Source: Cladosporium halotolerans (lineage: Eukaryota). From it: a stretch of 64,000 nucleotides of DNA. The notes under the pieces were generated by a model. It ran no database searches. It was not told the DNA's origin and saw only the letters and a list, made by a program, of their open reading frames with translations. Both the position numbers and the translations under genes were made by a program. The stretch lies in NCBI RefSeq assembly GCF_011745625.1, contig NW_027191452.1, positions 248,001-312,000 of the forward strand. The letters run 5' to 3'. Shown in pieces: positions 7,007 through 54,389 of the stretch. The number at the start of each line of letters is the position of its first letter. Within the stretch, counting starts at the first letter, position 1.

Positions 7007-8749
7007 TCAATAACCGACGCCGGTTGCCATGCCGGTCAGTCCAGCCCCTGCCACATTCACGCTCATGCCCTGCAAATTGTTGGGCATGCCTGGAACGTTT
7101 TGCGGATTGAGCTTGAACTCCGGGTTGCAAGGCGGAGAATGTTGTCGGTGGTACTTGAGGCCGTTCAAGTTCTTGTAGCGCTTCCCGCACACCTCGCAGC
7201 GATATGGCTTCTCTTTCTCCATGCCGACGGTGCCCGGGTAGGGAATAGACGTCGCTGGGTCGACGATCGAGAAAGTGCCGTCGGGGTTCTCCTTCAGCTG
7301 TTGATTTTGGTGACCGTGTTGCTTGTGGTACTTGAGACCGTTCTGGTTCTTGTATGCCTTCTCGCAGCCGATGACGGGACACTTGAAGGGCTTGATCTCT
7401 TCTCCCACAAAGCCGCCTACGCCAGCAAGGCCGTTGAGAAGCTGGTTCTCGCGCACGCGCTTGGCGATCTCGCTGTTGTTGGCGAGGGCAGAGGCAGGGA
7501 AGCCTTTGTTGCCGTATCCTTGCTTGCTCAACAGACGCTTGGCAGGGTCATCGATGGTGCCAGAGCCACCGTTGGCCATATCTGCAGCGCTGACGTCGTA
7601 GTTGCCTTGCATGAGCTGGTTGTAGTCGATGTTGTTGAGGTTGCCAAGCTGGCTGTAGTCGATGTCTCCCTCTCCGGGAGTGCCCGGGGCGGAAGAATCG
7701 GGCGTCGCGATGCGCTGAGCCGCACTGAGAGTGGGTGTGTTGACCGATGAAACGGTAGGGTTGTTCTGGTAATTGAAGTTTTGAGAGTTGGCGTGTGGCG
7801 TCGACGCATCAGCGGAATTGAGACCTTGGCCCTGGAAGGCGTTGGCGATGTTGATATTGATTGGCGGAGCTCGAGGTTGCTGGCGGCCAAACTGAGGTTG
7901 TGGCTGAAACTGCGAGCCCTGAGGTTGCTGCATTTGGGATGCGGGCATGCCGTCATCCATCTCCATATCGTCGAGGCCGTCGAAACCGCCCATGTGGTCG
8001 TTATGTTGGCCGTTGAATAGCGGCGACGCGTTGGGCTGGAAGCTAGGCTGTGGCTGCGCGTATTGCGGTTGAGGCGTGCTGTGCGAACTCTGCGCTTGCT
8101 GTTGGACCGCCTGGGCAGTGCTCGAAGCGTTCGCAGCGCGGCTGCTGGGATATTGCTGATCTCTGGGTGTCCGTCCCATGGTCTGGTTGGGTTGTGCTGC
8201 GTGCGCCTCCTCGTAGTGCTGCAAGAGCTCGTGCATCGAGTCGAGACGGATGTCGCAGCAGACGTAGTCTTTCATGTAGTTCGCCTCCATCTTCGGGAGG
8301 TAGGACGACGAGTGGAGGGAAGGCGGTTGGATGCCGTTGTGCAGCATGGGCGAAGTGCCGCTCATGAGGAGACTGCAAAGGCGAGTTAGCTGAGATTCGA
8401 CGTGAAGGCTCGTCGGGCCGTAAACTCACTCGTCGCGGACGAAGCTGCCCATGGAAAGGCCGCCCCAGCTCATGCCGCCCATGAGGCTGCCGGAGAGCCC
8501 GACGTGGCTCTCGCGGCGGAAGCCCATGCCGTCTCGCACGGGGATGGCCTTCGCGCCGTAGGGTGTGGTGCTGAGCATGCTCACGGACTCTTGCCGCGGC
8601 TTGAGGTCGTTGCCGGGAATGCCGTCCATGTCCATGTCGGCGTCGGGCTGCGGCTGGCGCAGCTGGGATGTGAGGTTGGACTGCTGGTTGCGCGGCGGCG
8701 AGTTCGACGCCTGCCGTGGGGTGGCGATGTTTATAGGCGGGCTGGGCAT
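7007..8749 (-). CDS. SFP1: Split zinc-finger (C2H2) transcription factor Sfp1; 2 exons, intron 8373-8429
   Basis: C2H2 fingers FKCPVIGCEKAYKNQNGLKYHKQHGH and YRCEVCGKRYKNLNGLKYH, plus the N-terminal CC...LHELLQHYEEAH-type motif. The GTGAGT...GCTAAC...CAG intron joins SFVRD-D-LLMSGTSP. First AUG is at 8749 (MPSPPINIATPR). Confidence 0.9.
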
Positions 8750-11700
8750 GGTGTCGCCTGGGATGCGGATGTGCGGATAGTGGTCGCCGGGGAGGAAGAC
8801 GGCGCCCGAGGCGGCGGCGTCGTCGGGGAAGAGGATGTCGTCGCTGCTGAACTCGTCGGCAGTCGCGAATGGATCCGCGGGTTTTTGCGGGCGGGACAGC
8901 AGCAGGGCCGGGGCGAGGCAGGCGTGGGTGTCGCTGTGGTGGTGGTGGTGGTGGGTGTAGTGGTGCGCCGCGTGGGGAGGAGTGCTGACAGGCGAGCTCT
9001 CAGCACTGCTTTCGCGTCCACTGGGCGGGTGGAGAGGCGGCGTCGAGAGAGTTGAGGAGGCCACGGTGCCGGTGGTGGTGGAGGATCTTTTGGTAATATA
9101 GCGGAGGGCCGGGCGGCGAGTCGGCGCTTGGGCTGAGTCGGGTGGAGTCACCGAGCGGGCTAGGGGCAGCGGGCGCGAGGCGGTACGTAAGGAGACGCTG
9201 GCAGGAGCATAGGGCGAGGCAAGTGCGCCTTGGGTTTGGCAGGCGCGGAGCGAGCAGGGCCGGGCACGGGCGCGGTGATATATCTGTGGCAGACGCCGCG
9301 GGCTGCTCGGCCTGCTGGGCTGCTGGGCTGGGACGACGGTCGACGGACGGCTAGTACATAGTGAACGACACGCTGCTGCTGCTGATCGACAGGCGGCGGG
9401 CGCGCATCGACAAGCGTCACCACTGCTGCTGCCCTCGCCGCCGCCTCGCCGCATCGCCGCGTGCGCCGATGCCTGAACTCTGCTGCTCGCGGCTGGCGGA
9501 TGCGGATGGCGACGCAGGGCCAGCGCCGGCGGGCGCCAGAGGCTGCGCTGCGTAAGGTTACAGCTCGGCCGGCGCGCGTCCAATCACGCCGCCGCCTCAT
9601 AGCCGAGCGCGCCAGAAGCTCGAGGCGGCGAAGTCAGTTGCGCGGGAGCGCAGGGTGAATCACTCCATCCGCCGTGCGTGTGCCAGAGCTGGCAGAGCCA
9701 TGATCCGTCCGCATCGCGCATGCAGCTGCCAGGCTGATCCGCTCCCGCGTGGCGGGCCAGCGCCGGTGCAGCAGCGACGCCCGCCCTGCGCAGCCGCGTA
9801 GGCGCCCACCGTCCATGGCCGCCGTCTGGAGGGTGTGTACATTATGGATGGAGGCGAGGGAGGTACATCGCACACGTACCGCGGTGTGCTTCAGCTTAGC
9901 CTCGACCATTGCGCCGTCTGTGGGATCGACGTGCGGCGCGCAGGCAGGATGGACGATCCAGGCACGCATCGGCATGCCCTCCACCGCGGTGCCCTCACAA
10001 CGCCGCATCGTCTGCCTGTCACCCGTGTCGTGAGGCCTGCTGCTGTGCACCTCTCCCTGCTACATACTGTGCCCTCAGCGCCTCCGTCCCACCGCCCACG
10101 CCGTCCATCGTCGCCACCTGCGCTCCCGAGCGCCTCCCCGGCGTCTGCCACGCGAGCTCGCCGACGCAGGCCCGTCTCCCAGCGCCGTGGTGTCCGTGAC
10201 GCGCCCGCCCGACCGGCCACCCATGCCCGGCCCACTTGGCAGGCGATTTCCAGAAGCAAAGAAGACCCCCCCGGAACGCTTTCGTCGACGTCTGTGCGCG
10301 CCGCCGTCCCAGACGCACCCTGGCGTGCCTGTCGCCGCCAAATGAGGCCCGCCCGTCCTCGTCCTGCCATCCTGTGCCCTCGCTGCCCCCACCGACCCGA
10401 CGCAGCTTCACCTGCAGCGTGCAGTCTTGCGCGTGCACGGCCTGTGAGCGCACGCGATCCCGCGCCCGCTGTCGCCGCTACTGTGTCGACAGAACCACCG
10501 CGCCCGTCAACATCACCCTTGGCTTCCTTCGACCCGACGTCTGGAGAGTCTCGCTCTGCAGCGCGATGCGTCGCCGGCGCCGCTTGCGAACCTCGGTATC
10601 GTCCGGTGTCTGTGAGACACCTCAACCGCCGTATGGGCGCTGGCCGATGCCCGAGCAGCATTAGCAGCATTAGCTTTCACGCCATTAATTGTGAGGTCAC
10701 CGCTGCCTCTGTTTACAGGCATGCCCTGAGCAGCTCAGCTTGCCGTACTGCATGTCAAGCTGCGCGAGCGAAGTAAGCAATGACTCGCATCTTCACGAGT
10801 CGATCGCCCATCACGCGCGGGCACACGATGCGATGCGGCTGAAGCGTCGATTGTGACAGCGCGGTTGCTTCCTGGAGTCTGTTTCGTCCAACGTCGGCCA
10901 AAACTCGACGCCTTCGCCGACATTCATCCAAGGTTCACTAGGCGGCAGGCTTCCGCTAAAATGCCCGGCGCGCTGTGGACCAGCCGGGAGTCGGATGCAC
11001 GAGCTCGGATTCGATCCATTTTATTGTTCCTTCTTCTTGGTCAACGGCACTTGCTCGCGTGGCGGCTTCCTGACGACGCCCCATCAGCGACGGCACAGCG
11101 TGAGCCTGCAACTCACATTCTCGACATCTAGAACTTGCATAATACCCACATCCCCCCTTTTGGCACTTGCGCGTACTGTACGGCTCGCAGCTGCCTCGCT
11201 GCTTGTGGAGATTCTGCCCGCTCAAGGCGTCCAACCGATTAAATGCCAACGCTGGTAAGTTGCTGCAGCTACTGGCAAATCCCGGTCGTTCCACGGCTGC
11301 TCCCCTTGAAGACAGCGGGATCACTTGAATTTCCGCCAAACCGTTTGCAGGACCCGCTTCCGTGATGGTTCCGTTCCTGCCCGCCACCTCCCACAGCACC
11401 GTGAGAACTTGACTACGCGGTGCACCGTGTGCGCGCTTCGTCGAACTCTGGTTGTTCAGATTTTAGGGCAAGTCCTAATAGATTCATTATCACCCCCACG
11501 GATCCGCAGCACGAAACGCGTGCTGCAGCACGGAGCCGTCGTCACAGAAATGGAGCCAACAAGACCCTGATTGAGCCAGCACGGTCCTGGCTGTCAGGTC
11601 TGAGGTCTGTGGAGTTGCGGCGTCGTGAAGTTGAGCAGGTTTCCCGCCACCAGCAACGGTCGCGGTAGACGAGACGGCAAAACTGCTGCAGCATCGCTTC

Positions 11701-35995: not shown

Positions 35996-37179
35996 ATGGA
36001 GAAGTTCCGAACAAATCTGAAAGCCAGTGACCTTGGGTTGCAAGATGAGGAAGAGGGCCCTCTCGACGGTATTTATGGCCTGCTCAACGCGCGCGTTCTG
36101 GTGTGCTGACCGATAGATCTCCAGTGCTTGACCTGCCTCAACTGTACACAAGACCACCCGCTCCCGTACTACTATCCACCCTCGCCGATCTCAGCTCTCA
36201 ACCATCCTCATGGGAAAGTACACCTAGATCACGCAGCGGTATCTCAACGCCTCTGAAACGGAAACGTAAGATCAGGAATGAAGGCGTGCCGCAATACTTG
36301 ACAAAGATCATATCAAGTCCTCTTGCATGGATCGAGGATGATGGTGAGAAAGAGCTGGTATGGGAAGCAGCCTCGCAGCGTCTGAGCGAACGAAGTGGAA
36401 GGACAGCAATGGGCGCTATCACTCGGTCGTTCGCTATTCCCCTATTGCCGGAGACAGAAGTGCACCAAGCTGTCGGCGTCGTGAACGCTGAGCAAGAGCT
36501 AGCCCCGGACGCGGATGACATTGTCGAGCTTACGCTGTATGAGCCGGCGCTGACCGCAGACAACTTGGGCTTAAAGACATGGGCGTCATCCTACCTCCTG
36601 GCGAAGCAACTCTCCGCCCTTCAACAGTACATCCCAAATTTACCCCAAGATGCTGCGATCCTAGAACTGGGCGCGGGAACTGGTCTTGTGGGCATGGCTG
36701 CTGGCTTCGTCTTCCAGAGAAATGTCATTTTGACTGATTTGCCCGAGATTGTCCCTAACTTGGAGAAGAACGTCCGCTCAAACGCAAGCGTTGTATCTTC
36801 TCACGGAGGCACACTGTCGACAGCCAAGCTGGATTGGACCAAGCCGGATGATTTCGAAGCAGATGTTTATGCTGGATCGCCTAATTCTTTCCCTCTCATC
36901 CTCGCGGCGGACCCGATTTACTCCCCGGAGCACCCTAAGCTGCTAGTGAATGCCATTGAGTACCATTTGCGTACAGATGTGGCTGCTAGGGTGGTGATTG
37001 AGACGCCCTTACGCGATGCCTATGCCCCGGAGAGAAAAGATCTAAGAGATAGACTCAGTTCCATTGGCTTGCAGATTATCGAAGAGGGTGAGGAAATAGG
37101 ATACGATGACTGGTCTTCTGGTCAGGGCGAAGAGCTTGCTGAAGTAAGATGTTGGTGGAGTGTTTGGGGCCGTCTTTGA
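35996..37179 (+). CDS. Protein-lysine methyltransferase (Methyltransf_16; Rrg1/Efm2-like); intron 36069-36124
   Basis: Motifs LGLKTWASS, ILELGAGTGLVG, LTDL, LDW, ILAADPIY and RLSERSGRTA. A GT...GCTGAC...CAG intron links the ATG at 35996 in frame. Confidence 0.82.
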
Positions 37180-39765: not shown

Positions 39766-41570
39766 ATGGCTTCCCTCTGGAGCACGTGGAATGGCTACAA
39801 CCTCAGGACCCACCCCGGTCGAGGTAGGCGAGCACTGCAACGGCATCGGAAGGCTATAGGTCAAAGCTGGAGGCAAATCATCACCGATCACCCCAACGAT
39901 TACGAACAAGTCAGGGTCGAAATTTGCAATGCCATCCGTCAAGTCACGGCTCTCGAAAAGGAGATTGGCAAGACGCAACATCTCCTGAGGGTGTTAGAAC
40001 GGAGAAAAGAGGATGAAGGGGTTCACATGAAAGCCGAGCCGTACGAGGCACTGGCTGTGTTGCAGTTGAGACTTTCAGCAGCCGTGACCGAGCTGTCCGA
40101 AGTCGAGCGCCGGGTTGGACCAACTGCCGATCATATCCGACGATACGACGAGGAACGCGTGCAGAATATTGCAGCTGACATTCGCGCGACCTATACGCTC
40201 ATTTCGATTGCTCGCACGGCTGAAGAAGTTAACGCTGATGGCAGAGACCAGCGGCGAAAAGACTGGCAAAGTCACATGCAAGTAGACGTACGGCCAGGTG
40301 GAAGGAATGTCCACAAGATCGTCGGTCAAGGTGAGTGCATCTACAAGTAGTGCTAGTTCTTGCTATCATGAGCTCATCCCCGTCCTATTTAGGGAGCACA
40401 TCGACTGCCGGTCTCTGGCTCTGTGGTGACCACAACAACACGATTGTGGATCGCTTCGTCGTGAAAGACGTGTGGTTTACTGAGCGGCCCGAGCAGTGGA
40501 CAAGAGCAAGATGGTGGGTGGGAGATGTTAATGACATCCTTCGCAGAGTTCCGAGAGAAGCTCATATCATGACACGTCTCAATGAGGCATGGTCAGAGAA
40601 CATCTTACAAATGAGAAGCTGGGTGATCCGGCAACATCAGTTGATGTACAGGGTAAGTGCACGTTTCCCGTAGTATTTGAGTCCTGTGATGCGGACAAAT
40701 CCTCTACAAATCGGCCAAGAACATGGAGACTAAACAGCTGATTTTGCGCAGATGTTCCTTGAGTATTGCTCCCATGGTGATACCATTTCACTCCTGTGGC
40801 ATAGCATGGAAGCAAATTGGCGGACTCGACCTCTCAACAACAGCTGGGTTCCTGAACCAGCAATTTGGCATATTTTCGGGTCACTGGTCAAAGCAGGCCT
40901 GGTGATGGAGCAGGGAGGGATCAACCACCGCCGACAACGCTGGACACCCATCACGCATCTGGACATCAAGCCCGACAATATCTTCATTGGGGATTATCCG
41001 CCTCAACGCGATGGATCCAACTACTTCTCCATGTACCCGACGTTCAAGCTCGCAGACTTTGGCACAGTTTTCGATGCATTCCGAAACTATCCGCTAGACC
41101 AAAACTTGGATGTGGGAACCCCTGGATATTTGGCACCAGAGCAACTCTCCAGGTACTATGGACAAACGCGTCCGATACTAAATGAGAAGACGAACGTCTG
41201 GGGAGTTGGCATCACCATCATGGCTCTGATGAACCTTGACATCAACGCTGGGGAGCTCGATTTCAGGGGAGCAGCAATTAGTGACACCCACCCGAGTCTG
41301 GTGCCAAAGTTCAATGCGCACGCTCAATCGCGGTACAGCGAGGATCTTCGGGAGCTTGTCACCTGGTGCTTGCAGTATCGTCAGTACCACCGGCCTACGT
41401 TCGCCCGCCTGAGGACCAAAATCCATCAAAGCACTGGAATTGTCCCAGGCCGCACAGATCTTGCGCAGGGCGCTCGGTATGGCACGCTGAACCAGTTGCC
41501 CGCAGGTTTGACGCTACTCCCGGGCCTGGAGACCAGCAATTACACGTTGGGGTTGGCAATGCCAGCATGA
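39766..41570 (+). CDS. Divergent Ser/Thr protein kinase with an N-terminal coiled coil; introns 40331-40392, 40653-40751
   Basis: Spliced motifs IVGQGSTSTA, VVKD, REA, FLEYC, HLDIKPDN, DFG, GTPGYLAPE, NVWGVG and RPT. Confidence 0.8.
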
Positions 41571-41811
41571 TTGCCTCGACCCAGCCTGGGCTTTGGTGGA
41601 TTGTCCTGCTTTTATTTCTCTTGTTGATACTACTCTTGTCAATTTTTTCTTGTAGTTCACCAAGTTTGTTCAATAGTTGCATGTATCATGAGAATCTAGC
41701 GTCAAGTGACCTACCAGGGATTGGATAAATCTTCTTGATCCAATTGAAGTGTGACCTTGTGGAGCATTCGTGGTTGAGACGACGTAGTCATATATTGCCA
41801 TCAAGACGTAC

Positions 41812-43074
41812 TCATAGCTTCATTCTCATCTCCATGTCCCGCCACCTCCCCTCCCTGAGTGGATCGAGCTTCCTTAACTCTGCCAGCCATCCTGCCAGCT
41901 CCTTCGTTGTGACCATTTTGTTGCCTGCCTCAATGTCGAGATAAAGTCGAGAATACTCGAGTAAAGCCTGGTAAATGTACTTGCAGTCTTCTGCTCCCTC
42001 GAGCATATCCTTAATACTTTCGATCTCTTGCTCCAAGTATCCCAATCTATCTGCGTTCGTGATTGGAGATAAAACAGCAGTAGATCGTGCATAGTTAGCT
42101 GAATTGAGAGGCGAACTGCGATCCAGAGTTGACATTAGGTATTGGTGATACGACCATAAGCTTTGGTCGTAAGGATCGGTATACAGTGCCGTAGTGATGA
42201 GTTCGAATTCGCCGTCGAATAGCTTCTTTCGAGCCTCAGCGTCAGAGTCGCGCTCCTCAAGCAACCGAGGAATCAACTGGCTGCGATTGTGCCAGGCCGA
42301 GAAGTTCGACAAGTTGCTCTGGATCATCTTGGTTGTGTACTCAAACTCCGCCTCTACCATGCTCTTTCCGCCCAGCCTTTCCAATTCTCTAACTATTTTG
42401 CGCCTGTAGTCCCACGCGTGGAAGTTTCGGCTGTCAAGGGCCAGCATCTTGCTATCCAGCGCCAATTCGCCCTGCCAAAGCTGCAGGGCCGTTTTGGTGG
42501 GAAGGTGTTGAGTCGCAGTCGCTAGTAACCACGAGCGGTGATTCCAAATCCAGTAGCACTTGGGAAATTGCTTTATGAGTGGTATGAGGAATTGAAGGTC
42601 TTCCTTGACCAGCATAGCGATCTCTTGCTGCGCGAGGGTCATGGTGGCCTGCTGCCCGTCCGCACCTTCAGGCTGGCTTTCGCTGACAGCATTGTTTCCT
42701 GACTTGAGCTCTTTGTGGAAGACATCGAGGAGGAGTATGCGGCGGTAGTTCCATATCGTGTAGTATTCGGGATTTTGCTGGAGGAGGGAGGAGATCTGCT
42801 GGAAGGTGGTGTTTGCGAAGTCGCCGACTCTGATCTTGAGGACGCCTATTAGCCTACCCTTACTACTTGAAGCTTCGCGTCAGAGCGACTTACCTTCTCA
42901 CCCACCTCTTTTTCAAGCGACCGATACTGCTCGATGCGCTTGCGCTCTTTGTCTTTGGCGGCCTCGCTCTTGTCCACCGCCGCACTTGAGACGCGGGGAA
43001 CGCCGTGCTGGGCATCGTCAACCTCACATTTCTACGTGGTAACGCAGTCTGCGAGTCTCACTTACGCTTGCCAT
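41812..43074 (-). CDS. BET4: Rab geranylgeranyltransferase type II alpha subunit; introns about 43008-43065, 42835-42893
   Basis: Spliced start MAS-HGVPR. PPTA repeats NPEYYTIWNYRR, PKCYWIWNHR, DSRNFHAWDYRR, NLSNFSAWHNR and DPYDQSLWSYH. Confidence 0.92.
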
Positions 43075-43833
43075 AGTTGTTGCGGGTAGATTCGCGAGAT
43101 TGGTAGCGAAATGACGCAGTTTCGCTGTTTTGTCGGTCAAAGTCCGAGGCGCGGCGCTTTTGATCACTGGAGGCACCTGATCCAACTTGTCGAATGGTGT
43201 GGTGGGTGGTCAGTCGCACCCCTCGGCGTTGAGGGAAACGAGTTGGACAAATATGTTCTCAAACACTTTTTGCGACATTGGAGACGCCACTCAAGACACT
43301 GTGACTGAACGTGATGCTACAATTACTGCGGACTTCAGTAGGGTTACAGATGCATACTGACCGATTGCTTCCTCCAGCGGCGAAAAACATCGTGGACGCT
43401 ATTTGGGCTGCCATCCGCACCTGCTGCGCGAGTGCTTGGATCTTAGGTACCTATGTGGGTGATCGCACGCTCTTTATGACTTGACGGCTGCGACAGCACA
43501 ACCCTGTACGCGAGATTCGCCCCAAGAGTTGGGAAACGGCAAGAAGCTGCGATGTTTGAGGAAGAAGTCACAGCCCGCAACATCCTGCCATGATGCGGCT
43601 GCTCTCCGTGAACACGAGCACCTACTACCTGTGGCATTCAAGGTAAAGTAGGTAAGGCAAATTGTCATTTCTACACCCACAGACCGTCGTGGGTAGTTCT
43701 TCAATTGGCTCACACACTCCGTATGATCATCAATCGTATCACCGACATCCGCTATTGCGGCCCAAGTACCGACAGTAAGCAGAAGCTCTTGAAAGTTGAT
43801 ATCGTGTACTCACTATTTGTCGACAGATGCAAA

Positions 43834-46227
43834 ATGACCCAACACCTGTCCCAAGGAGGCGCCCATCATGGCTCCACCGCCTCTTTCGCCATCTTCGTCC
43901 CAAAAGGCAACCTATCATTGAATGCGTTATCGACTTTGACACTCCGTGCTGGGAATGCCACCAGCAGGCAGCTCTCGCAGCTGGACAGCCATGGCCCCCC
44001 GCCGTGTGGCCTCCAGGCGGCTCCGCGACGATCGGTGACCCTCCCATCGAAATGCCTGTCGTCCATAATCACAATTACTACGGAGACATCCAGTGGCGGC
44101 CAAGCCCCGGCACTCCCCGGCGTAGAAGACTGGCGCAAGACCCGAACCTTGCGGAAGACACCGTGTCTCTCGTCGACATCCCGGTTGAGGAAGAGTACAG
44201 AGTCCAAGACAGAAGCCCAACGAGGAAGGCATTATTGTCAACCTATGGCCACCACACCGAGCGACGATTACGATACATTCCGTTCCCAGTTCGAGCATCC
44301 AGTGTGCGAAGAGTTGGGAGTATCGCGACAAGACCACAGCCGGAGTCCTCTCTGGGAGAGCCTACCAAGAGATCTGACGGCACCGTACGAAGGGACTTTG
44401 CACGATTCGGCTCCGAAACTTCTATCAACACCGTATGAACTACTCCCGCAAGTAGACGGAAGCCAAGAAAAAGTCCCGAGTCCGAGTCACCATCACTGGC
44501 CAGATAGATTCATACGAGACACCCCAACCAAGGAAGCTTTCTTGCTAGCCAATAACAGCGCTGACGGAGCCGATCCGTTCGCGTCGAATGGCACTCGAAC
44601 CATCAGGATGGCGCAAAAGTATACGACTTTACGCTCAGTCAGCCATCCTACAGTTTGGACTGTCGGTGGCGCAGCAGTGACCGAGGGCGTGGCTTCGACC
44701 AGCAATGGAAGAGGCCGGCGCGTCACCAGTGGCAGTAGCGCACCGCACTACGCTGCTGAATTTCTGAGGGCACGATCTCCCACAGAGGAAACATTGACAC
44801 ATGGTCGAAGACTTGCCGTTGCCATGGACATCAATCGGACAGGACCGGTGGTATCCCCGCCTTCATCTCCTCGGTCACCGCCAGCCCTAGATTGCGGAGA
44901 AGCCTGGCAGCATGTCACCTGGAAAAATGATCGATGGGAGCGTCCGGCCGGGAAGACTCCAGCGAGGCTGAAATCATCGGCTGTGAAGAAGACGACGATT
45001 CCGTACAAGGTGCTCGACGCACCGGCGCTTCGAGACGATTTCTACTGTTCTTTGCTCGCCTACTCCAAAACCCTGCAATGCCTTGCAGTAGGCCTCGGCA
45101 TTCACGTGTACTTGTAGTCTGAACATCGTGATCCAGTTCAAGCGAAGATTCCGGATTCACTTGCCGGGCCGCGAGGCAGCTCTTTCGTCACTTCCATATC
45201 TTTCAGTTCTAACACTGGTGGAGCGGCGATTCTTGCAATCGGGCGTGCAGATGGCAAGATCACACTTTGGAGCCCGCTGGAGCCAACCCCACGGTTCAAT
45301 AGCGAGCAGCCTGCCGCAGTGTCGCATGTTTGCTTCCGACCCACGACCTACCGGCGCCGGTCGATTCGTGAAGCGACCGCGTTTGTCGAAACGGAAGAGC
45401 TTTTGGTAGGCGATGAGGCCGGCAATGTCTACCTCTACTCAGTGGAATGGCCCAACCAGGACCAGCGAGATTTATTCGATTGGCATGGTATCATGACTCT
45501 CATCGCTCGACTGAGCTGCCATACGCAACAAATCTGTGGCATTTCTTGGAGCCCTGATGGGGAGTTCTTCGCAACCGGTGGCAACGACAACAACCTCTTT
45601 CTTTTCGAAACAAAGAAAGTCTTGCGACGCTTCCGCAAGCTCGGCTCAGAAGACAACACCCGCATCCGTGTTCGCAATGACACTACGGTTGACCTAGCCG
45701 GGCAGGGTGAGGCTGCTGCGATCTTGCCTGGGCGAGAGAAGCACAAGTTCACGCTCAACGCGGCCTGCAAAGCAATTGCTTTTGCTCCTTGGCAACCGTC
45801 TCTCATTGCAGCCGGTGGCGGAAGCAATGATCGCTGCATCCACTTCTTTCATGCACTGTCCGGCGCTAGGCTAGCAACCATTGATTGCTATGCTCAAGTC
45901 ACCAGCCTCGTGTTCAATCCGCGTAAACGCGAGATCGCAGCGACATTCGGCTTCGCTCAACCCGATCATCCATATCGTGTCGCCGTCTTCGCGTGGCCAA
46001 GCTGTCGTATGGTAGCAGGCATACCATGGTGGGGAGAGGAGCGTGCCTTGTACGCCATTGAATATCCTAGTCTTGGGGGCAGTCTCGTTGTCGCAACAAG
46101 CGATGCGAGTATAAAGTTCCACGAAGTGTGGTCTGGCACAGATGGTGGTCAAGAAGCAGGAGGTATCTTTGGGAGCCCCATTCTCGATGATGAACTGATG
46201 GCTGAGCGGATTGAGACGATCAGATGA
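43834..46227 (+). CDS. AMA1: Meiosis-specific APC/C activator (Cdc20/Fizzy family, Ama1 type) interrupted by one in-frame TAG at 45115-45117
   Basis: C-box DRFI, PYKVLDAPALRDDFY, WD40 repeats (HTQQICGISWSPDG...ATGGNDN; AAGGGSNDRCIHF; QVTSL) and a C-terminal IR tail. Track ORFs 43705-45117 and 45319-46227 share a frame and are joined by a stop-free linker. The start codon is uncertain. Confidence 0.85.
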
Positions 46228-46712
46228 ACTCTTGATCTTGACGGGACCTTCATACCTGAGCTTTGCTGCGTTTGAGCCGCTTGTACAGTATCCTTTTGCC
46301 TAATCGTATCAATCCGTATTTTCATCGATAGTTTTCTTGCCTCATATGCAATGTCCTGACTACTCCTTTACTCAGGCAACCACAGTCAGTCAATCTGTGA
46401 ACAATAATGACGATAGCTTCTACATTGTGCAAGTCATATGCGCCACCTCTACCAAGTTCACGGTGATGATTCGAAGCTCGCAACGACATTTTTTCACATC
46501 GGCACCATCGAAACATACACGACGGATGTGCCTTCTGTGTTTGTGGTTAGCGAACTGTGAAGCTTGAGCTTATAACGGACGTTCGCAGGGTGCTCGGTCC
46601 AGGGCCACAGCGAGCCCTCAAAGGCTCCACATCTCCAGATTCTCCCACGAATTAACAGAATCGGCTCCACCAAGGCCACCCCAGAGGCACTCCAGCACTT
46701 CGTGAAGGTTTC

Positions 46713-46720
46713 CGGTTAAA
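46713..46720 (+). promoter_or_regulatory. CGGNTAAW (XlnR/AraR-type) site upstream of the GH51 gene
   Basis: CGGTTAAA about 200 bp before the ATG. Confidence 0.4.
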
Positions 46721-46916
46721 TCGCTGACTCGACGCACCTAAGCGAAGCCATGAAGCTGCAGCTGCAGCTGTCGAGGTCTTTAGTGTTTACGCATGATGTC
46801 GTGCCTCGGCCTTAGCTGTTGGCAACATTTGAACACATGTTCTCGTTGTTCGCTTTCTTTCTTCCTGTAGTTCAACAAAGAAGTTTAGTGACGCTCAGTA
46901 ATTACGCAAGTCCAAC

Positions 46917-48642
46917 ATGACGACCTTCACTAAGATCGAGGAAAGCGAGCAAGCCACCATCCAAGTCTTCCCTTCTCACAAGCTCAGCAAGATCAACGAC
47001 AATGTCTACGGCGGCTTTACTGAGCACATGGGACGATGCGTTTACGGCGGGCTTTATGACCCCGAGAACCCTAACAAGGACCTGATTGACAAGAATGGTT
47101 TCAGAAAAGATGTCATTGATTCTTTCAAAGAGCTCAATGTTCCAGTGGTGCGCTACCCTGGAGGCAACTTTGTCGCTACCTACCACTGGATCGACGGTGT
47201 TGGACCGAAGGACCAACGTCCCAAGAGGCCGGAGCTTGCTTGGAGAGCAAGGGCGGAAAGCAATCAGTTCGGGACGGACGAGTTCATGAAGTGGTGCGAG
47301 ATTGTTGGCACTGAGCCTTATTTGGCTTTGAACTTTGGCACTGGTATGTATATCTGTGGCTTTTCTCTGGGAAATCATCATATTGACCATCAGCAGGCAC
47401 CCTCGACGAAGGTACGCTCGGCTTGTCGTAATGAAATGAAGACATCCCCCTCAATCAACTTGAACTCCTAATCAGATGTGCTGACCGCAAAACAGCTCTT
47501 GCGTGGCTCGAATACTGCAACTCGACAAGAGACACATATTACGCCAACCTTCGCCGCAAGAATGGAAGGGAAGAGCCTTACAATGTGAAGTACTGGGCTC
47601 TCGGCAACGAGACATGGGGTCCATGGCAGGTTGAGATGGTATGCCAATCCGGTCTCCAGCTGCTGCAATATATTCTAACCAAAGGCAGATGACCAAGGAA
47701 GATTACGGGAAGAAGGCATACCAGTGGGCGAAGGCACTCAAGCTCCTGGATCCTACAATCAAGTTGATCCTCTGCGGCGAGACCGGTCACTCCGAATGGG
47801 ACTTCCACACCTTGAAGGAGTGCATCCGCTATGATCTGCACGGTCTCGGTGGTGACATGACCGCTAGCTTGATCGACATGCACAGCATTCACGTCTACAC
47901 AGCCTCCGACGACCCGGTCAAGAACGCGATAGCGCCTCGCTCTGCTGAGCGCGCAATTGAGATTTGCGCGGGTCTCATCGACCTCGCTCGTATCCAGAAC
48001 AAGGTACCCAATTCGGTTCCGAGGCAAACGATCTGCTTCGACGAATGGAATGTCTGGGATCCGAAGCGCGCCCCCGGCGAGGACGGCGCGGAAGAGACGT
48101 ACACCCTCTCAGACGCCTTGGCTGTGGCTATTTGGCTCAATGTATTTGTCCGCCAGAGCAAGTACATCGGCATGGCAAACATTGCGCAGAGCGTGAACGT
48201 GATTGCACCTTTGATGACCACTCAGAAGGGAGTGATCAAGCAGACAATCTGGTGGCCGCTTTTGCTGTTCTGCAAGTACATGCGCGGACACACCATCGCA
48301 ACGCATGTCAGCAGCGCCGCTTACGAGGGCGAAACAGAGCCTTCGTGGATCCGATCGGCAATCGACACACCGTGGTTGGATGTATCTGCTGCTGTTGGCG
48401 ACGATGGCGTCGTGAGCATGGTTGTTGTCAATGCACATAAGACCAATGCTCAGAAGGTCGACGTTTTTGGAACGAAGCCTTCGAGCGGCAGAGTCCAAGT
48501 CTACTCGATTACCGGTGACTCTTGGGACGTAACCAATATGGCAGGAACTCAAACTGTTGGAATCAAGGAGTCACAGTGGGATGGAAACGGAAGCTACGAG
48601 TTCCCCAACTTCAGTATCACGATGCTGAGATGGACGCCTTAG
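46917..48642 (+). CDS. Intracellular alpha-L-arabinofuranosidase, GH51; introns 47344-47396, 47412-47495, 47639-47688
   Basis: Motifs [25 protein letters not shown] (acid/base), FDEWNVW (nucleophile) and [10 protein letters not shown]. No signal peptide. Confidence 0.92.
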
Positions 48643-49202
48643 CTTGATGTCGTTCAAAGGCCATTTAGATAGATCGATAAATATTACAAGGATTCCTCGC
48701 GAGGTCTAGTGTACCAGATCCGAAGTGATTTGTCCCGTGCTATTCAGACATACCGACTCGTGAGGCCACTCTGATCCGATGCATACGATGAAATGCGCCC
48801 ATGATCGCCCGAGGCGTATGATAGATATCGTCGTTGTCAGTACCTCATGATCGAAGTCCCACGCGAGATTCGCGGCTCGGGGCGATCACAAAACACTGCG
48901 GTGTATGTGTGGGATCAGATGGGCACTGATCGGATCGTCCCGCCAATATCGTTACTGTGAGAGACGAGAGAAGCTTCCAAAAGCCTGTCTCGACAATTCG
49001 AGCAGATGTATTGTATATGCGAGGCGGGCCCGTGAATGCCACGATCGCCTCGCTGCGCAGTCTTTGTCTCGGCCCTCAAAATTCCAGTCGCCGGGCTGCG
49101 GTGGCTCTGGTAGGAGTGCAGGCCAACTAGTGGCCTGAAATGAAACACAAAATTGCCCAGAACCGTATGCAGAGGCATTTCCAGTCACATCCGATTGCCT
49201 CA

Positions 49203-49484
49203 TCAACCATCGGCCTCCGGATCTTCCTCTCCGTACATTTCTTCTTCCCTCTCCTCGTTCTTGCTTCGCTTGCCCTCAACACCCTTAGCGTCCTCTTCCA
49301 TCTTCTGCGTCAGGAAAGCATTGATCTCGCTTTGCAGCTCTGTGCTCTTAGAACGCAGGGCGCTCAGGTATGCCGTCTTGTCCGAAACATTGTTCACCGA
49401 AGCCGAAGGCAAGCTGTGAGAGAAGGCGTGGGTGCTTGAAGGCGATGAGTAAGCAGCGGTTAGCTGCCTGTTTTGCGAGGACAT
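49203..49484 (-). CDS. GON7: EKC/KEOPS complex subunit Gon7 (93 aa)
   Basis: LTAAYSSP...KTAYLSALR...LQSEINAFLTQKMEED...EEEMYGEE matches the fungal Gon7 pattern. Confidence 0.85.
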   Translation of the reverse strand: MSSQNRQLTAAYSSPSSTHAFSHSLPSASVNNVSDKTAYLSALRSKSTELQSEINAFLTQKMEEDAKGVEGKRSKNEEREEEMYGEEDPEADG

Positions 49485-50126
49485 TGTGAGAGCCGATCTG
49501 GTGCTTGAGGCTAGGACTGACGCTGCTGGGCGTTTGCGTACCTTATGTGAGTAAAAGCGTGTTGGTGGAGATGGTTGCTTGTCGGCTAACTTGCCATCCA
49601 ATGGATGAAGCACAGTATAACTACCACGATAGTCTTCTTGACATGCTCAACTCACCAAGCATTTCGATTTCCATCAGATGAATAGGATGAATGGACGCCG
49701 ATTAAAAATCTGGGCCCGCCATAACATCCAATAGTCTACTTGCGCTGCCGGTCTTTGCCTTAAGCCCGCAATATGCGATCAAGCCACCAGAGCTGGGGCT
49801 GCATCTGTAGGAAGTATTTGCTGGCTAGGTAAGGATGGAGTTCATTGACCGATAACTCCGTCAACACTGTACCTGCGCTCTCAAATGCACATGGCGGGGC
49901 GTCTCGGCTGCAGTATGTGATCAATGATGAGATTGGATAGTTCCATTACCGCCTAAATTATTGCATGGCAAGAGCGTCTAGCTACGGCGGAGATGGATGC
50001 TAAGTCCGTAGACCAAACACGGAGAGTGCAAATGTCGTCTACTTAAGTGGCTAGAACTGGCCTTATTTCTCCAAGCGACAGCTCTGGCACCCACGAAGTC
50101 TCGGCGTTTCGATCTGACCAGTCAAC

Positions 50127-51239
50127 ATGACCAGCCTGCTTCCAAGCACCATGAGAGCCGTCGTTGTTCGTTAGACGGATCAGCCTCCTACTGTGGAAGA
50201 AGTCCCAGTACCCCAGCCTTTCCACGGTTCTGCGATCGTACAAGTCCTAGCTGCGAATGTGATCAGCTACATTAGGGACATATACAATGGAAAACGCAAC
50301 TACCCATTCCCTACACCTCTGATTGCTGGTACTTCAGCTATCGGACGGGTTGTAGCAGTGGGCCCAGATTCCGTCAAATTGAAGCCTGGTGATCTGGTTT
50401 TCATCGATTGCACGATCCGGGCCCGCGACAGCGACGATATTTTCCTGGCGGCCATTTCCCAAGGCTTTGGTGAGGGATCCGCGAAGCTCATGAGAGATAT
50501 ATGGCGGGACTGGACATACGCCGAGTATTGCCGAACTCCACTCGAATCACTGACGGTGCTGGAAGAGGAGCGCCTAACCAAAGACCTCGGGTACAGTCTC
50601 GGCCAGCTGATGTATTGCTCAACGCTGCTCGTACCGTACGGTGGGCTGCGCGACATCAATCTCCAAGCTGGTGAGACAGTCATCGTGGCACCTGCCACAG
50701 GGCCGTTTGGCGGAGCGGCCGTCCTCGTCGCATTAGCTATGGGTGCCAAAGTCGTCGCCATGGGACGCAACACTGAATCTCTCGCCCGGATCAGCGCGTG
50801 CGTGTCCCAGCCTGAGCGCCTCAGGACCGTTCCGATTACTAACGACACGGAGGCCGATCTTGAATCCCTCAAGGAGGCCTGCGGGAGTGAGGCTGATGCC
50901 TACTTTGACATTGGTCCGCGCGAGGCGGTCACGTCGACTCATTTCAAGTCGGCAATTCTGGCGCTGAGGCAAGCCGGCCGTGTCAGTCTCATGGGCGGCT
51001 ACCTTCACGACGTTCCCAGTCCGCACTTCCCGATTGTGCGCAAGAACAACCGACTGCAAGGTAAATGGATGTACGAGAGAAGCGAGGTTCGGGATTTCTT
51101 TAAGCTGGTGAACGCTGGACTGCTCGACTTGAGCGTATGTGAGGTGACTGGGGAGTTTGGGCTCGAGGAATTCAAGGAAGCTTGTGATGTGGCAGCCGAG
51201 CGCGCAGGGTTCGCGAAGACTGTTGTCATCAGGCCGTGA
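50127..51239 (+). pseudogene. MDR-family (GroES-like + Rossmann) alcohol dehydrogenase-like gene with an in-frame TAG at codon 16 (50172-50174)
   Basis: Reads MTSLLPSTMRAVVVR*TDQPPTVEEVPVPQP..., followed by GRVVAVGPD, APATGPFGGAAV and GKWMYER. The natural MDR N-terminus lies upstream of the stop and in frame. Confidence 0.7.
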
Positions 51240-51824
51240 GACAAGGTTGATCATCAGGATGATGCTGTCCTGTGGTGACGATGATGATAGGGAATCTCCT
51301 CTCTTGGGATGTTTTTATTAGATCCTCTTCAAATTTCCAATTGTGCAAGATCTGCTGCATTCTTGGTTCAAGAAATCCATGTCATACGGTACCTTGCCGT
51401 CTGAGCTCGTGTATATCCTAATACTTACAACCCCGACAGCCAGGGGTTGGAAATATGGGCTTGTGTTCAGGGTGGAGGTTGCTTAGCATGGTGCTTGGGT
51501 GTTGTGGGGACAGGGCGGGATCGGCCGGCAAACATGCGGGAGTGGCTGAGCCGTTCCAGATCCCCGGGACGCGGACGTCCCTCATAAGCCAGGCATGCCA
51601 GGCTGACTGGCGTCACTCCATCTCCAAGCCGTCCCATCCCATAGCAACCGGCATGTCATATACCACATCCTACGGCCGACATTGATGGCGGAGCATACTT
51701 ATTACAGATGCGAGTGCCGCTAGCAGGACCGTGAGGGGCACCACGCAGCACGTCGCCTCCGCGTGCGCTGATACCTAAGCTTGCTATTTGGCCTTCACTG
51801 CGCACACCGTGACACAGTCGCACC

Positions 51825-54389
51825 ATGGACGACCGGCTCCCACCGCTGCGCCCGCCGCCTCGGCCGCGCTCACCCACAGGCTCGAGGTCGCAATCCGCGT
51901 CCTCGCAACGCAGCGATTCTTCGCTTTCTCTGGTATCCACCGATTCTGGCCAGCCCAGCACAACGTCTTCAATCAGATTTCGCCCTCAACCTCAACCTAC
52001 TCTATCTCCTGCCGGTACCAGACCTTCGACCGCAGGCGGACCGACGCCATCGCAAAGCACCTCGAATTTGCAGAATTTTTCAAGGCCGGCTTTGCGGACT
52101 TCTGTCGATGGGTCTATGAGGATGCCGTCACCAAGCATGCCGAGCAACCCCTTCGGCCATCGCGCGCGCCAGCATAGCCAAGGCTTCTTTGAGCCCTCGC
52201 TCCCGCATGCTACCAGCAATAACGCTGGCCTCAGTGCATCCACCATCGCTGCGCAAGCAGCCATGCACAACATATCACCGCCACCTCACTTGGGCCAGGA
52301 TCGCAAGCGCTCTCACCCTGGTCTGGCCTCCATCAACACTGCTGGCGCCAATGAGGGTAGACGACCTAGTGGTTCAGGTAGCCCACAGCTGCTGTCGACA
52401 CATGGCCTTGCCTACAGCAACGGGACCGTGGGCGGATCGCGGCTTGCCGCAACCAATGCCGCAAATGCTGCCTTTCCCAACGGTAGAAGCCCACTGCCAT
52501 CACCAGGCATCCCACCGCCACCTCCGCAGCACAGCAATCTCCCTCCAGTACCGCAATTGGAAAAGGAACCCAAGGGCAAAAGCTCAAAAATGAAGTTGTT
52601 CTCCAAGCCAAAGAACATTACGCTCTCCAAGGAAAAAGAAAGCAAGGTTGCTTCAGGAGCTCAATCACCCAGCAAATCTGCTATAGGAGCACATGTACTG
52701 CGAAATGGCTTCGCAAACGCATCTACCAGCAGTCTAGTGGATCCTGGGTCAAGTGGCAGCTCTTTGTACGCAAGCGCTAACGCTTCCACTTCCACTCTTG
52801 TACCTTCTACATCAGAAAAGGAGAAAGAGAAGCATCGTCACAACTTCCTATCGCGAGGGAAACACAAGTTGAACGAGCATGCAACGCTTCCGCTGTCATC
52901 TGCAAACTCAAATTCTCAGCCCACAAACCCGGACAGACCGCAGCCCTTATACTCGTTTACCCCGGACTCTCCAGGCGCAGGTTCTTTCTCAAAATCAATG
53001 TCAGGACTCGATCTCAGGCACGGCGGGCGCGCACTCCGTGAGAAAAAAAGAGAAGAGAAAGCGGCAGCGGCGGCCAAACTTGACTTAACACCAATCGTTT
53101 CAAATACTTCAGCGGGTGATAAAAACGAGTTCCTGGGACCGAGCAGCTATGAGACCCCTTTCGGCCCACCGTCAGGGGTGCAGAACTTCTTTTCGCTGAA
53201 CCACGACCCTGCGCTATCCGCGCAGACCCTGGGCAATGTCGGCGCGTCTATGGGCCTTCCTGGAATCGGACCAGATGATGCTTGGCCACTGCTGAAAGCG
53301 CGCTTACTGAACCTCTTCTCGGGCGAGGCTCTGCTCCGGCCTATAGAAGAACTGAATGTGCTCGTGTCTGTGCACATTTTAAGGTGCATTCAGCGGAAGG
53401 CGCCCTCGATTGTCATCGAAGATCTACACGAGCTACTGCAGACTGGGTTCAAAAGTCTGGGGCAGACGCTGCGCAGCATCCCTGACGACAAATTGATCAC
53501 TAAACTCGTTGAGATGTGGGTCACCGTTTACACCTCCATCCTACCTTTCTTGCAAGCAGTCTTCCTGCCATTGGACCTCGAATTCAAAGGGCGAGGCGCT
53601 TGCATGAGCACTCGTGAGGCCGAGGAGTTTTGGAACGCAGTGCCCGAGAGCTGGAAACCTGACGACAGGCCATCTTCCGCGGGCGGATCTGGCAGTACGT
53701 ACAACATGGGCGAAGATCTGGATGTGCGTCGTATTACTCTCATAACGTTTCGAGACACGGTGATCTTACCGAAGCACGAGCCCTTGATGGCTATTTTCAG
53801 CCGCCTTTCGCTCGACAACATTGGTGCAGCAGCGCCATCTCCCGACCCCAACAAAGGCCGAGATCACGCTCGTTCAGATCCGGCGGCGCCAGGAGCCGAG
53901 CGACCAGGGACAGCAGGCAGTTTGAGCCCCAACATGAGTAGCTTCAACTCCCAAGGCTCTACACTTCTCGACGCAGCAAGCAACTCATCGGGCGGCGGCG
54001 CAACGAGTTTCGCAGGTCGGAGCCGTGCAACGTCGAACACGTCTGCAGGCAGCTTTGGCACCAGCTTACCGCATCTCAACAGCCCCATGCCGGCTTTGAC
54101 TCCAACGATCGGTGTCTCGGGCGTTTCGGCAACATCTGCGCCCTTCCCGGCCGCTCCGGTCATCCAAGACCCGGCCAAAGTCACAGATACCGTGGCGCGC
54201 ATGTTGCAGTGCCTTTACGTCCTTGCATCATGTCAGACTGGCGACGTTGGCCAAGGCGTTGTGGAGAGGCTTACTGGCGCATTGAAGTACAATTGGCTAG
54301 GCCGTGGCCGCACTGGAAGAGATAGGAGAGGTTGGGTTGGGATGAAGAATCCGGGCAGTAGTGGGAGAATAGGCTTGGTTGGAGCCTGA
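51825..54389 (+). CDS. HbrB-domain protein (TORC2 subunit Bit61/Protor-like)
   Basis: Long Ser/Pro-rich N-terminus, then PDDAWPLLKARLL...ILPFLQAVFLPL...FRDTVILP...RMLQCLYVL and NWLGRGRTGRDRRG. Confidence 0.8.
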   Translation: MDDRLPPLRPPPRPRSPTGSRSQSASSQRSDSSLSLVSTDSGQPSTTSSIRFRPQPQPTLSPAGTRPSTAGGPTPSQSTSNLQNFSRPALRTSVDGSMRMPSPSMPSNPFGHRARQHSQGFFEPSLPHATSNNAGLSASTIAAQAAMHNISPPPHLGQDRKRSHPGLASINTAGANEGRRPSGSGSPQLLSTHGLAYSNGTVGGSRLAATNAANAAFPNGRSPLPSPGIPPPPPQHSNLPPVPQLEKEPKGKSSKMKLFSKPKNITLSKEKESKVASGAQSPSKSAIGAHVLRNGFANASTSSLVDPGSSGSSLYASANASTSTLVPSTSEKEKEKHRHNFLSRGKHKLNEHATLPLSSANSNSQPTNPDRPQPLYSFTPDSPGAGSFSKSMSGLDLRHGGRALREKKREEKAAAAAKLDLTPIVSNTSAGDKNEFLGPSSYETPFGPPSGVQNFFSLNHDPALSAQTLGNVGASMGLPGIGPDDAWPLLKARLLNLFSGEALLRPIEELNVLVSVHILRCIQRKAPSIVIEDLHELLQTGFKSLGQTLRSIPDDKLITKLVEMWVTVYTSILPFLQAVFLPLDLEFKGRGACMSTREAEEFWNAVPESWKPDDRPSSAGGSGSTYNMGEDLDVRRITLITFRDTVILPKHEPLMAIFSRLSLDNIGAAAPSPDPNKGRDHARSDPAAPGAERPGTAGSLSPNMSSFNSQGSTLLDAASNSSGGGATSFAGRSRATSNTSAGSFGTSLPHLNSPMPALTPTIGVSGVSATSAPFPAAPVIQDPAKVTDTVARMLQCLYVLASCQTGDVGQGVVERLTGALKYNWLGRGRTGRDRRGWVGMKNPGSSGRIGLVGA

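Follow-up and report, generated by a model that had tools for sequence, protein, structure and literature searches.

How does a gene stay in good order when its reading frame is cut by a stop codon at a Trp that its relatives keep? This question is raised by a 64,000-nucleotide (nt) stretch of fungal DNA, here called the window, and by one gene in it, an intron-less gene for an AMA1/Fizzy-type anaphase-promoting complex/cyclosome (APC/C) co-activator, which carries a single in-frame TAG inside its WD40 propeller part. The original prediction for this locus proposed that the stop is opened only in fruiting bodies, by adenosine-to-inosine (A-to-I) editing of the mRNA or by readthrough. Our answer, which we hold tentatively and as a little short of probable, is that AMA1 is conditionally restored, most likely by A-to-I editing of the TAG. 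It starts from a TAG that is fixed and older than the divergence of two haplotypes that carry it, and from a frame behind the stop whose variation argues for continued constraint. The features needed are the following, all on the plus strand.

43834..46227, plus: AMA1/Fizzy-type APC/C co-activator gene, intron-less, 797 codons with the TAG read as Trp
43834..45114, plus: N-terminal 427 codons, comprising a fast-evolving region, conserved blocks and the start of the propeller domain
44503..44514, plus: DRFI at the C-box position, residues 224-227, aligned with DRF/DRY of relatives
45013..46119, plus: CDC20/Fizzy WD40 propeller, residues 394-762 (Pfam PF24807), with the stop after about 33-34 profile positions
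45115..45117, plus: in-frame TAG, codon 428, at the invariant Trp of the VYLW strand, from the sequence and alignments
45116, plus: adenosine proposed to be deaminated (UAG to UIG), with U at -1 and G at +1 read in the sequence
45118..46224, plus: the 369 codons behind the stop, nonsynonymous to synonymous changes 5:8 and omega 0.20 among TAG-bearing haplotypes
46219..46224, plus: C-terminal Ile-Arg (IR tail), I796 and R797 invariant, followed by TGA at 46225-46227

Frame 1 from the ATG at 43834, the start chosen in the original prediction (public open reading frame (ORF) calls use an upstream in-frame ATG at 43723), runs to ...LAVGLGIHVYL, meets the TAG, continues with SEHRDP... and then stays open to the TGA; a frame analysis gives 501 open codons before the TAG and 369 after it. 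The claims made for this frame stood when it was re-read: the A lies at 45116 with a T before it, and translation confirmed a stop-free frame behind the TAG to the IR tail, an intact DRFI and 797 residues with the TAG as Trp. The DRFI we take to be the C-box and the terminal IR to be the IR tail; the protein ends in ...ETIR, and the IR is invariant in all 21 aligned sequences. Judged from the sequence, ordinary translation would yield the N-terminal 427 residues only, the fast-evolving region of which is presumably disordered.

The propeller is recovered as a unit when the stop is read through. In the Pfam search, PF24807 is split by the stop into profile positions 1-33 before it and 50-291 after it, and the read-through protein matches in a single stretch, positions 1-291 of 292 (E 1.4e-55). 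The score of 189.1 bits narrowly misses the curated cut-off of 200, as is usual for a divergent subfamily that has insertions in its loops. An AlphaFold model of residues 380-797 (predicted local distance difference test score, pLDDT, 80.9; predicted template modelling score, pTM, 0.83) places Trp 428 within a beta strand (model strand 45-50). A Foldseek search fills its first 28 ranks (23 listed rows, plus additional chains of the same entries) with nothing but chains of Slp1, Cdc20 or Cdh1 and the APC/C or checkpoint complexes that contain them, with E-values of 2e-23 to 1.7e-19, and the best PDB matches by sequence are Slp1, FZR1 and CDC20. In this model, the read-through product is a complete Cdc20/Cdh1-type seven-blade propeller. 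The closest proteins carry the source names AMA1 (JGI) or 'Meiotic fizzy-related 2' (NCBI), and the gene is likely an AMA1 orthologue, an assignment that follows the source names of the best matches and not a tree including yeast AMA1, CDC20 and CDH1. Pfam, fold and alignment agree with the earlier description of an AMA1-type gene intact except for one TAG.

The residue lost to the stop is universal in the material compared. Residue 428 is W in all 20 aligned relatives; of 370 homologues fetched, 325 match the local profile, and the 291 of these that cover the site (including the read-through query) all have W, which bears out the claim of a conserved Trp. The remaining 34 do not reach the site, and another residue occurs there in none; among these 34, the N-terminal ORFs of C. 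halotolerans are truncations, and the others seen either start downstream or are wrong-frame models. The equivalent residue is W in Schizosaccharomyces pombe Slp1 (4aez) and in human FZR1 (4ui9_R), it is kept in the full-length sequences closest to the window protein (those of the C. fusiforme group and of the other Cladosporium clades), and in the alignment it is one of nine invariant Trp residues in the propeller part.

All best matches are from Dothideomycetes, the first named being Cladosporium fusiforme at 77%. A 'hypothetical protein WHR41_00111' of C. halotolerans (KAL1590926.1 / XP_069234031.1) is identical to window residues 436-797, and because of this 362-residue identity to XP_069234031.1 the window must come from C. 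halotolerans or a nearly identical organism. By its protein matches, the host is thus Cladosporium halotolerans or a very close relative (Dothideomycetes, Cladosporiales), in keeping with the class suspected at the outset. The public model of the gene (414 residues) has a wrong N-terminus and lacks 435 residues; its predicted 49-nt intron, 45088-45136, jumps the TAG, and its first exon is as follows.

44934..45087, plus: wrong-frame first exon of KAL1590926.1 / XP_069234031.1, its first 51 residues being the +2 frame of 44934-45086

Read against the genomic frame, this gene model is an artefact of the stop. The protein collection contains no full-length protein more than 79% identical to the window protein, as expected if every isolate of the species has the stop.

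We then considered whether the TAG is real and whether it is shared. The locus is contained wholly or partly in 20 public runs from 16 studies, and four runs (X3, X13, X15 and X17) were compared with the window on assembled contigs, which drop minority variants. X3 has 4 differences in 2901 nt, 3 of them on the contig spanning the site and none at 45115-45117; record 2 of X15 (43913-45180) has 18 differences, again none at these positions. X13 shows seven A>G changes, none at 45116; six of its substitutions (four T>C, one C>A and one G>A) are unplaced, so T45115 and G45117 are not strictly proven there, and an N-terminal allele with the T2A and L5P changes of X13 terminates at VYL. X17 is a mixture including contigs diverged by 8-11%, of whose 246 difference rows 40 are listed, with the state at 45116 unread. 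In public ORF collections, a cluster of N-terminal ORFs that is 96% identical to the window comprises nine distinct sequences on at least 20 contigs, and all nine terminate at ...GLGIHVYL.

As far as the contigs allow, the TAG is neither an assembly error nor a private allele, and the TAG allele is fixed. The two ways in which the original prediction might have dissolved, raw reads showing TGG (X3 and X15 keep the TAG) or a nonsense allele confined to one isolate (all nine public ORF alleles share the stop), are excluded to the same extent. An assembly or sequencing error with TGG as the true genomic codon is hence next to impossible, given the TAG in contigs of X3 and X15 from other studies, the lack of any A>G at 45116 in X13 and the nine distinct ORF alleles that stop at the TAG. 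That X15 and X17 are RNA is only a guess, and the depth of X15 is low; the X15 contigs (43913-46280) span roughly the gene body and contain nothing of the flanks at 43600-43890 and 46316-46500, which would fit a transcript.

The TAG is also old relative to the variation around it. At least three haplotypes bear it, H1 (the window and X3), H2 (X13, X15 and ORFs such as P0163 with P0170) and H3 (P0160 with P0236). H1 and H2 diverge by about 1.6% overall and differ at 45112, 4 nt before the TAG, and at 45137, 21 nt after it. Because haplotype-specific single-nucleotide differences sit so close on both sides, the TAG is older than the split of H1 and H2; for recombination to have carried it from one haplotype to another, crossovers within 25 nt would have been required. 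No further stop or frameshift is seen in X3, X15 or the public ORF alleles. The compared runs have 12 indel rows, nine in the flanks and three in the coding sequence, the latter being a +3-nt insertion common to X13, X15 and X17 and, on a single X17 contig, a -1 and a +1 change that lie 4 nt from each other. H2 has, at 44984-44994, an in-frame GAA insertion with three nearby substitutions that turn KKTT into KKMST just upstream of the propeller. Among ten N-terminal alleles compared over 43834-45114 (including P0122 and P0160-P0167), 20 columns are variable, and 23 of 190 two-state site pairs fail the four-gamete test, by recombination or through chimeric short contigs; because short metagenome contigs may be chimeric, this result is not used as evidence.

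The frame behind the stop can be compared between haplotypes that all carry the TAG. Between H1 and H2, codons 429-797 differ by 5 nonsynonymous (V435A, I553T, E606Q, D607N and D770G) and 8 synonymous changes, with pN 0.0059, pS 0.0304 and omega 0.20, and the neutral probability of at most 5 nonsynonymous changes among 13 ranges from 0.004 (kappa 1) to 0.015 (kappa 5). Across H1, H2, H3 and X3 there are ten amino-acid polymorphisms in residues 429-797, X3 adding L534F and H3 adding N541K, N615T, T618M and A627V; one of the ten, at position 553, lies in a conserved column (at least 90% conserved in relatives), and such columns make up 50.8% of all columns (P 0.009). The X15 contigs entering this comparison have 18, 2, 8 and 3 differences, all placed except one T>C within 46092-46280 that leaves the protein sequence of the H2 C-terminal ORFs unaltered; 63 nt of the part behind the stop lie outside the X15 contigs. 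Two tests using different information thus agree, on small numbers, and argue that the frame behind the stop stayed constrained after the TAG arose; the dN/dS check proposed together with the original prediction comes out on the side of constraint. This in turn argues against plain decay and for a bypass of the stop.

The decay in question would be that of a fixed null allele, a G-to-A nonsense knockout of AMA1 in a clonal lineage that has become a young unitary pseudogene without further damage yet, and we regard it as a real possibility, though a doubtful one. We know of no sexual state for the species, Trp codons are nonsense-prone (TGG-to-stop changes make up 13-28% of the weighted nonsense opportunities in the gene), and the divergence among the TAG haplotypes is so small that few extra lesions would be expected anyway. 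Codons 1-427 have 14 nonsynonymous and 5 synonymous differences between H1 and H2 (omega 0.95), residue 553 (45490-45492) is Ile in the window and Thr in H2 where 95% of relatives have Ser, and the AMA1 ORF of a sister Cladosporium is broken elsewhere, at W368, as expected if the gene were dispensable in the complex. A unitary pseudogene, however, should approach an omega of 1 and accumulate lesions, whereas since the TAG arose the frame behind it shows the low omega and the avoidance of conserved columns described above, and the TAG is kept in the nine alleles, X3 and X15 with no second lesion seen where the sequence is resolved. At 0.23, the terminal branch of the window protein does not exceed the path of 0.24 that leads to the sister C. 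fusiforme clade, but this test for relaxed selection is uninformative, the neutral drift expected since the haplotype split being only about 0.03.

Conditional restoration by editing, the reading we favour, would run as follows. An old G-to-A change would have turned the invariant Trp codon of VYLW, in the first propeller blade, into TAG, and the allele would then have become fixed. Ordinary translation would halt after 427 residues and leave a fragment without the propeller, so that the gene would be off by default; since selection keeps the part behind the stop, we infer that a full-length protein must arise under some condition. Deamination of A45116 in the mRNA would convert UAG into UIG, decoded as UGG and thus as Trp, and AMA1 activity would thereby be confined to a so far unseen sexual or sporulation stage.

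What singles out editing among the routes past a stop is the residue that it would restore. Near-cognate readthrough of UAG, as known from work in yeast, inserts Gln, Tyr or Lys and not Trp, and editing is therefore the only known route that would return the invariant Trp. Translational readthrough, in which a near-cognate or suppressor tRNA decodes the unedited UAG with an efficiency that is low or regulated, would equally explain the constraint behind the stop, and a regulator may need little protein. Nevertheless, we consider it unlikely, since the context UAG-UCU-GAA fits no readthrough motif that we are aware of, Trp insertion at UAG by near-cognate decoding is not known to us although W is universal at the site, and the 64-kb window contains no tRNA gene, a suppressor tRNA included. 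For editing, the locus has the marks of a premature-stop-correction gene, namely an in-frame TAG with U at -1 where orthologues have Trp and, on small counts, purifying selection on the frame behind the stop. Among edited sites in Fusarium graminearum, 85.7% have U at -1 and 36.9% have G at +1, A or G being preferred at +1, and UAG is among the two most edited triplets there, according to the available text of PMC4817773. In minimum-energy folds of 41-nt and 61-nt segments, A45116 lies in a hairpin loop, with fold energies not distinguishable from those of shuffles.

Alternatively, the working form might be one of two separate products, either the N-terminal fragment of 427 residues or a propeller fragment made by internal initiation. 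Each half is an extended open frame and the C-box lies in the first; against this, the propeller would be cut after about 33-34 of 292 profile positions, the first in-frame ATG behind the stop is M554, past roughly the first 160 propeller residues, and no homologue is organised so, which makes such an arrangement very improbable.

Even less probable, in our view, is that a small intron removes the TAG, be it the stretch below or another GT..AG pair. The only in-frame GT..AG pair examined around the TAG is the following.

45088..45117, plus: GTAGGC...TTGTAG stretch of 30 nt, codons 419-428, which in sequence mimics an in-frame intron

Its GT at 45088 and AG at 45116-45117 enclose exactly ten codons, the very codons that are missing from two Elsinoe models described below, and yeast AMA1 has a meiosis-specific intron (cited in PMC10776026, on the part of its text available). 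However, 30 nt is about half the length of a real 57-nt intron in the window, the stretch has no CTAAC-type branch site, and its removal would take out six invariant residues together with the Trp. Nor does any compared contig show a joint, and all aligned relatives encode the stretch without a gap.

Several observations weigh against editing as the explanation. The energies of the hairpins are no better than those of shuffled sequences (z -0.37 and +1.18), and A is the base at 45116, where resolved, in the contigs guessed to be RNA (X15 and X17). Only 13 substitutions and 10 polymorphisms enter the selection tests, and the regions on either side of the stop contrast with a Fisher P of only 0.07. 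Of 187 conserved columns, the window protein departs from 6, compared with 0-4 in the nine other full-length rows of the Cladosporium group and 7 in the partial row P0021, a count that is biased because the window protein sits alone on a long branch (taxon sampling). The change from TGG to TAG makes up 6.5-13.8% of the nonsense opportunities in the gene, and this feature carries no weight because the finding was picked by it. The want of a sexual state known to us tells against a sexual-stage mechanism as well. In the full-text literature searched, no report of A-to-I mRNA editing for Dothideomycetes is found among the matches listed; the available part of PMC11156358 gives a negative result for editing in Aspergillus nidulans and in Botrytis cinerea, and the Ame1-Tad3 interaction that is needed in Fusarium is reported, in the text seen of PMC11087585, to have evolved within Sordariomycetes. 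An independent origin of editing is given for Pezizomycetes in the portion consulted of PMC10776026.

The closest known system is FgAMA1 (PSC33; FGRRES_10728, FG3G26160), a premature-stop-correction gene of F. graminearum that is restored by sexual-stage A-to-I editing and needed for normal ascospores (PMC10776026). Its editing reaches up to 63-69% in perithecia (PMC10776026 Table S1; PMC4817773 supplementary file 7), and the TAG at its site has six independent origins in Sordariomycetes, the TAGs there being derived mostly from TGG (PMC10776026). The window gene is like FgAMA1 in belonging to the same gene family, as a likely orthologue, and in having a single in-frame TAG inside the WD40 part; the FgAMA1 site is tabulated by chromosome coordinate (chr3:5461540, or chr3:5461017 in Liu 2016). 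Unlike FgAMA1, the Cladosporium gene comes from Dothideomycetes (Cladosporiales), where editing is only a candidate.

With S. cerevisiae AMA1 and the S. pombe Mfr1/Fzr-type co-activators the gene shares a Cdc20/Cdh1-type seven-blade propeller, a C-box and an IR tail. In yeast AMA1, a post-transcriptional gate restricts activity to meiosis or sporulation through meiosis-specific splicing (cited in PMC10776026, in the part available to us), whereas in Cladosporium the gate would be a stop codon and not an intron. Unitary pseudogenes of meiotic genes in asexual fungi likewise have a nonsense codon in a sex-related gene of a fungus without a sexual state that we know of, but here the lesion is single, fixed, older than the haplotype divergence and followed by a frame with a low omega.

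The premature-stop-correction kind of gene is already known from Sordariomycetes, and Dothideomycetes is a class in which it is not established. That the proposed system would lie outside the documented groups fits the literature (Qi 2024, PMC10776026): for individual species from other classes, that paper had already noted premature stops at editing sites, the occurrence of editing there being still to be established. How stage-specific A-to-I mRNA editing is distributed over the classes of filamentous ascomycetes is treated as unsettled in PMC10776026 and, within its available text, in PMC11156358.

We next looked for similar patterns in other Dothideomycetes, reading them from protein models and ORFs, not from DNA. 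In a sister Cladosporium (P0124 and P0174, on one 16,094-nt Logan contig), AMA1 is split: the last residue of the N-terminal ORF aligns with R367, so that the stop, whose kind is unread, falls on the nearly invariant W368, and the C-terminal ORF, from residue 462, has 341 intact residues with 78% identity to the window. In Elsinoe batatas (KAG8627661.1) and E. ampelina (KAF2228183.1; P0255 and P0371), exactly the ten residues VGLGxxVYLW are missing from the models, and an in-frame TAG at the same Trp has probably been removed there by the annotation as a 30-nt GT...TAG pseudo-intron. In a Cryomyces antarcticus 'AMA1' (KAL2352060.1, P0279), the LDAP...CLAVGL segment is apparently in the +1 frame and the Trp codon is skipped. 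Three more Dothideomycete models at NCBI (P0189, P0194 and P0198) start about 8 to 22 residues after the site, without LDAP...VYLW, and may reflect further stops in the region. The Elsinoe, Cryomyces and late-starting models hint at stops because annotators make such patterns around an in-frame stop, as in C. halotolerans. A scan of JGI metagenome contigs for the DNA of relatives returned a single locus with 32% identity over residues 191-282, which is not an orthologue. It is possible, if somewhat doubtful, that restorative A-to-I editing or an equivalent recoding of UAG to Trp operates in Dothideomycetes and has let the VYLW Trp codon of AMA1 become a TAG in C. halotolerans, with Elsinoe and Cryomyces as probable further cases, in parallel to the six origins in Sordariomycetes.

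The rest of the 64-kb window contains no other stop-interrupted gene. By script, 24 isolated stops were found that are flanked on either side by 100 or more open codons, and the AMA1 pair is the longest by far. The next-longest pair (TGA 8426-8428, minus strand) was rejected as a stop-interrupted gene, being an ordinary 57-nt intron with GTGAGT..CTAAC..CAG; this intron (8373-8429, minus strand), with its in-frame TGA, lies inside the long ORF pair 7007-9583, neither half of which matches Pfam. A region degraded by repeat-induced point mutation (RIP) was likewise rejected, as the G+C content stays even across 40000-50000, at 0.49-0.57, and the adjacent genes are intact.

36049-37176: lysine methyltransferase, intact neighbour
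40734-41567: part of a protein kinase, intact neighbour
41815-42879, minus: prenyltransferase alpha subunit, intact neighbour
47635-48639: arabinofuranosidase C-domain, intact neighbour
50175-51236: zinc alcohol dehydrogenase, intact neighbour
51813-54386: HbrB-like, intact neighbour

For annotation, the result means that routing around the stop has given wrong public models of AMA1 for C. halotolerans, and probably for Elsinoe and Cryomyces too. The population data argue for a stop that has long been tolerated without decay, as the 'harm-permitting' model of restorative editing predicts, and the locus offers a single-position assay on cDNA for editing in a class for which there has been no evidence so far. 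If there is no editing, it would be a clean case of a fixed nonsense allele that is still constrained, which would itself need explanation. If editing is found, its machinery would be older, or would have arisen more often, than the model of a Sordariomycete origin holds, and C. halotolerans, a ubiquitous 'asexual' mould of air, dust and indoor environments, would have a cryptic sexual or sporulation programme.

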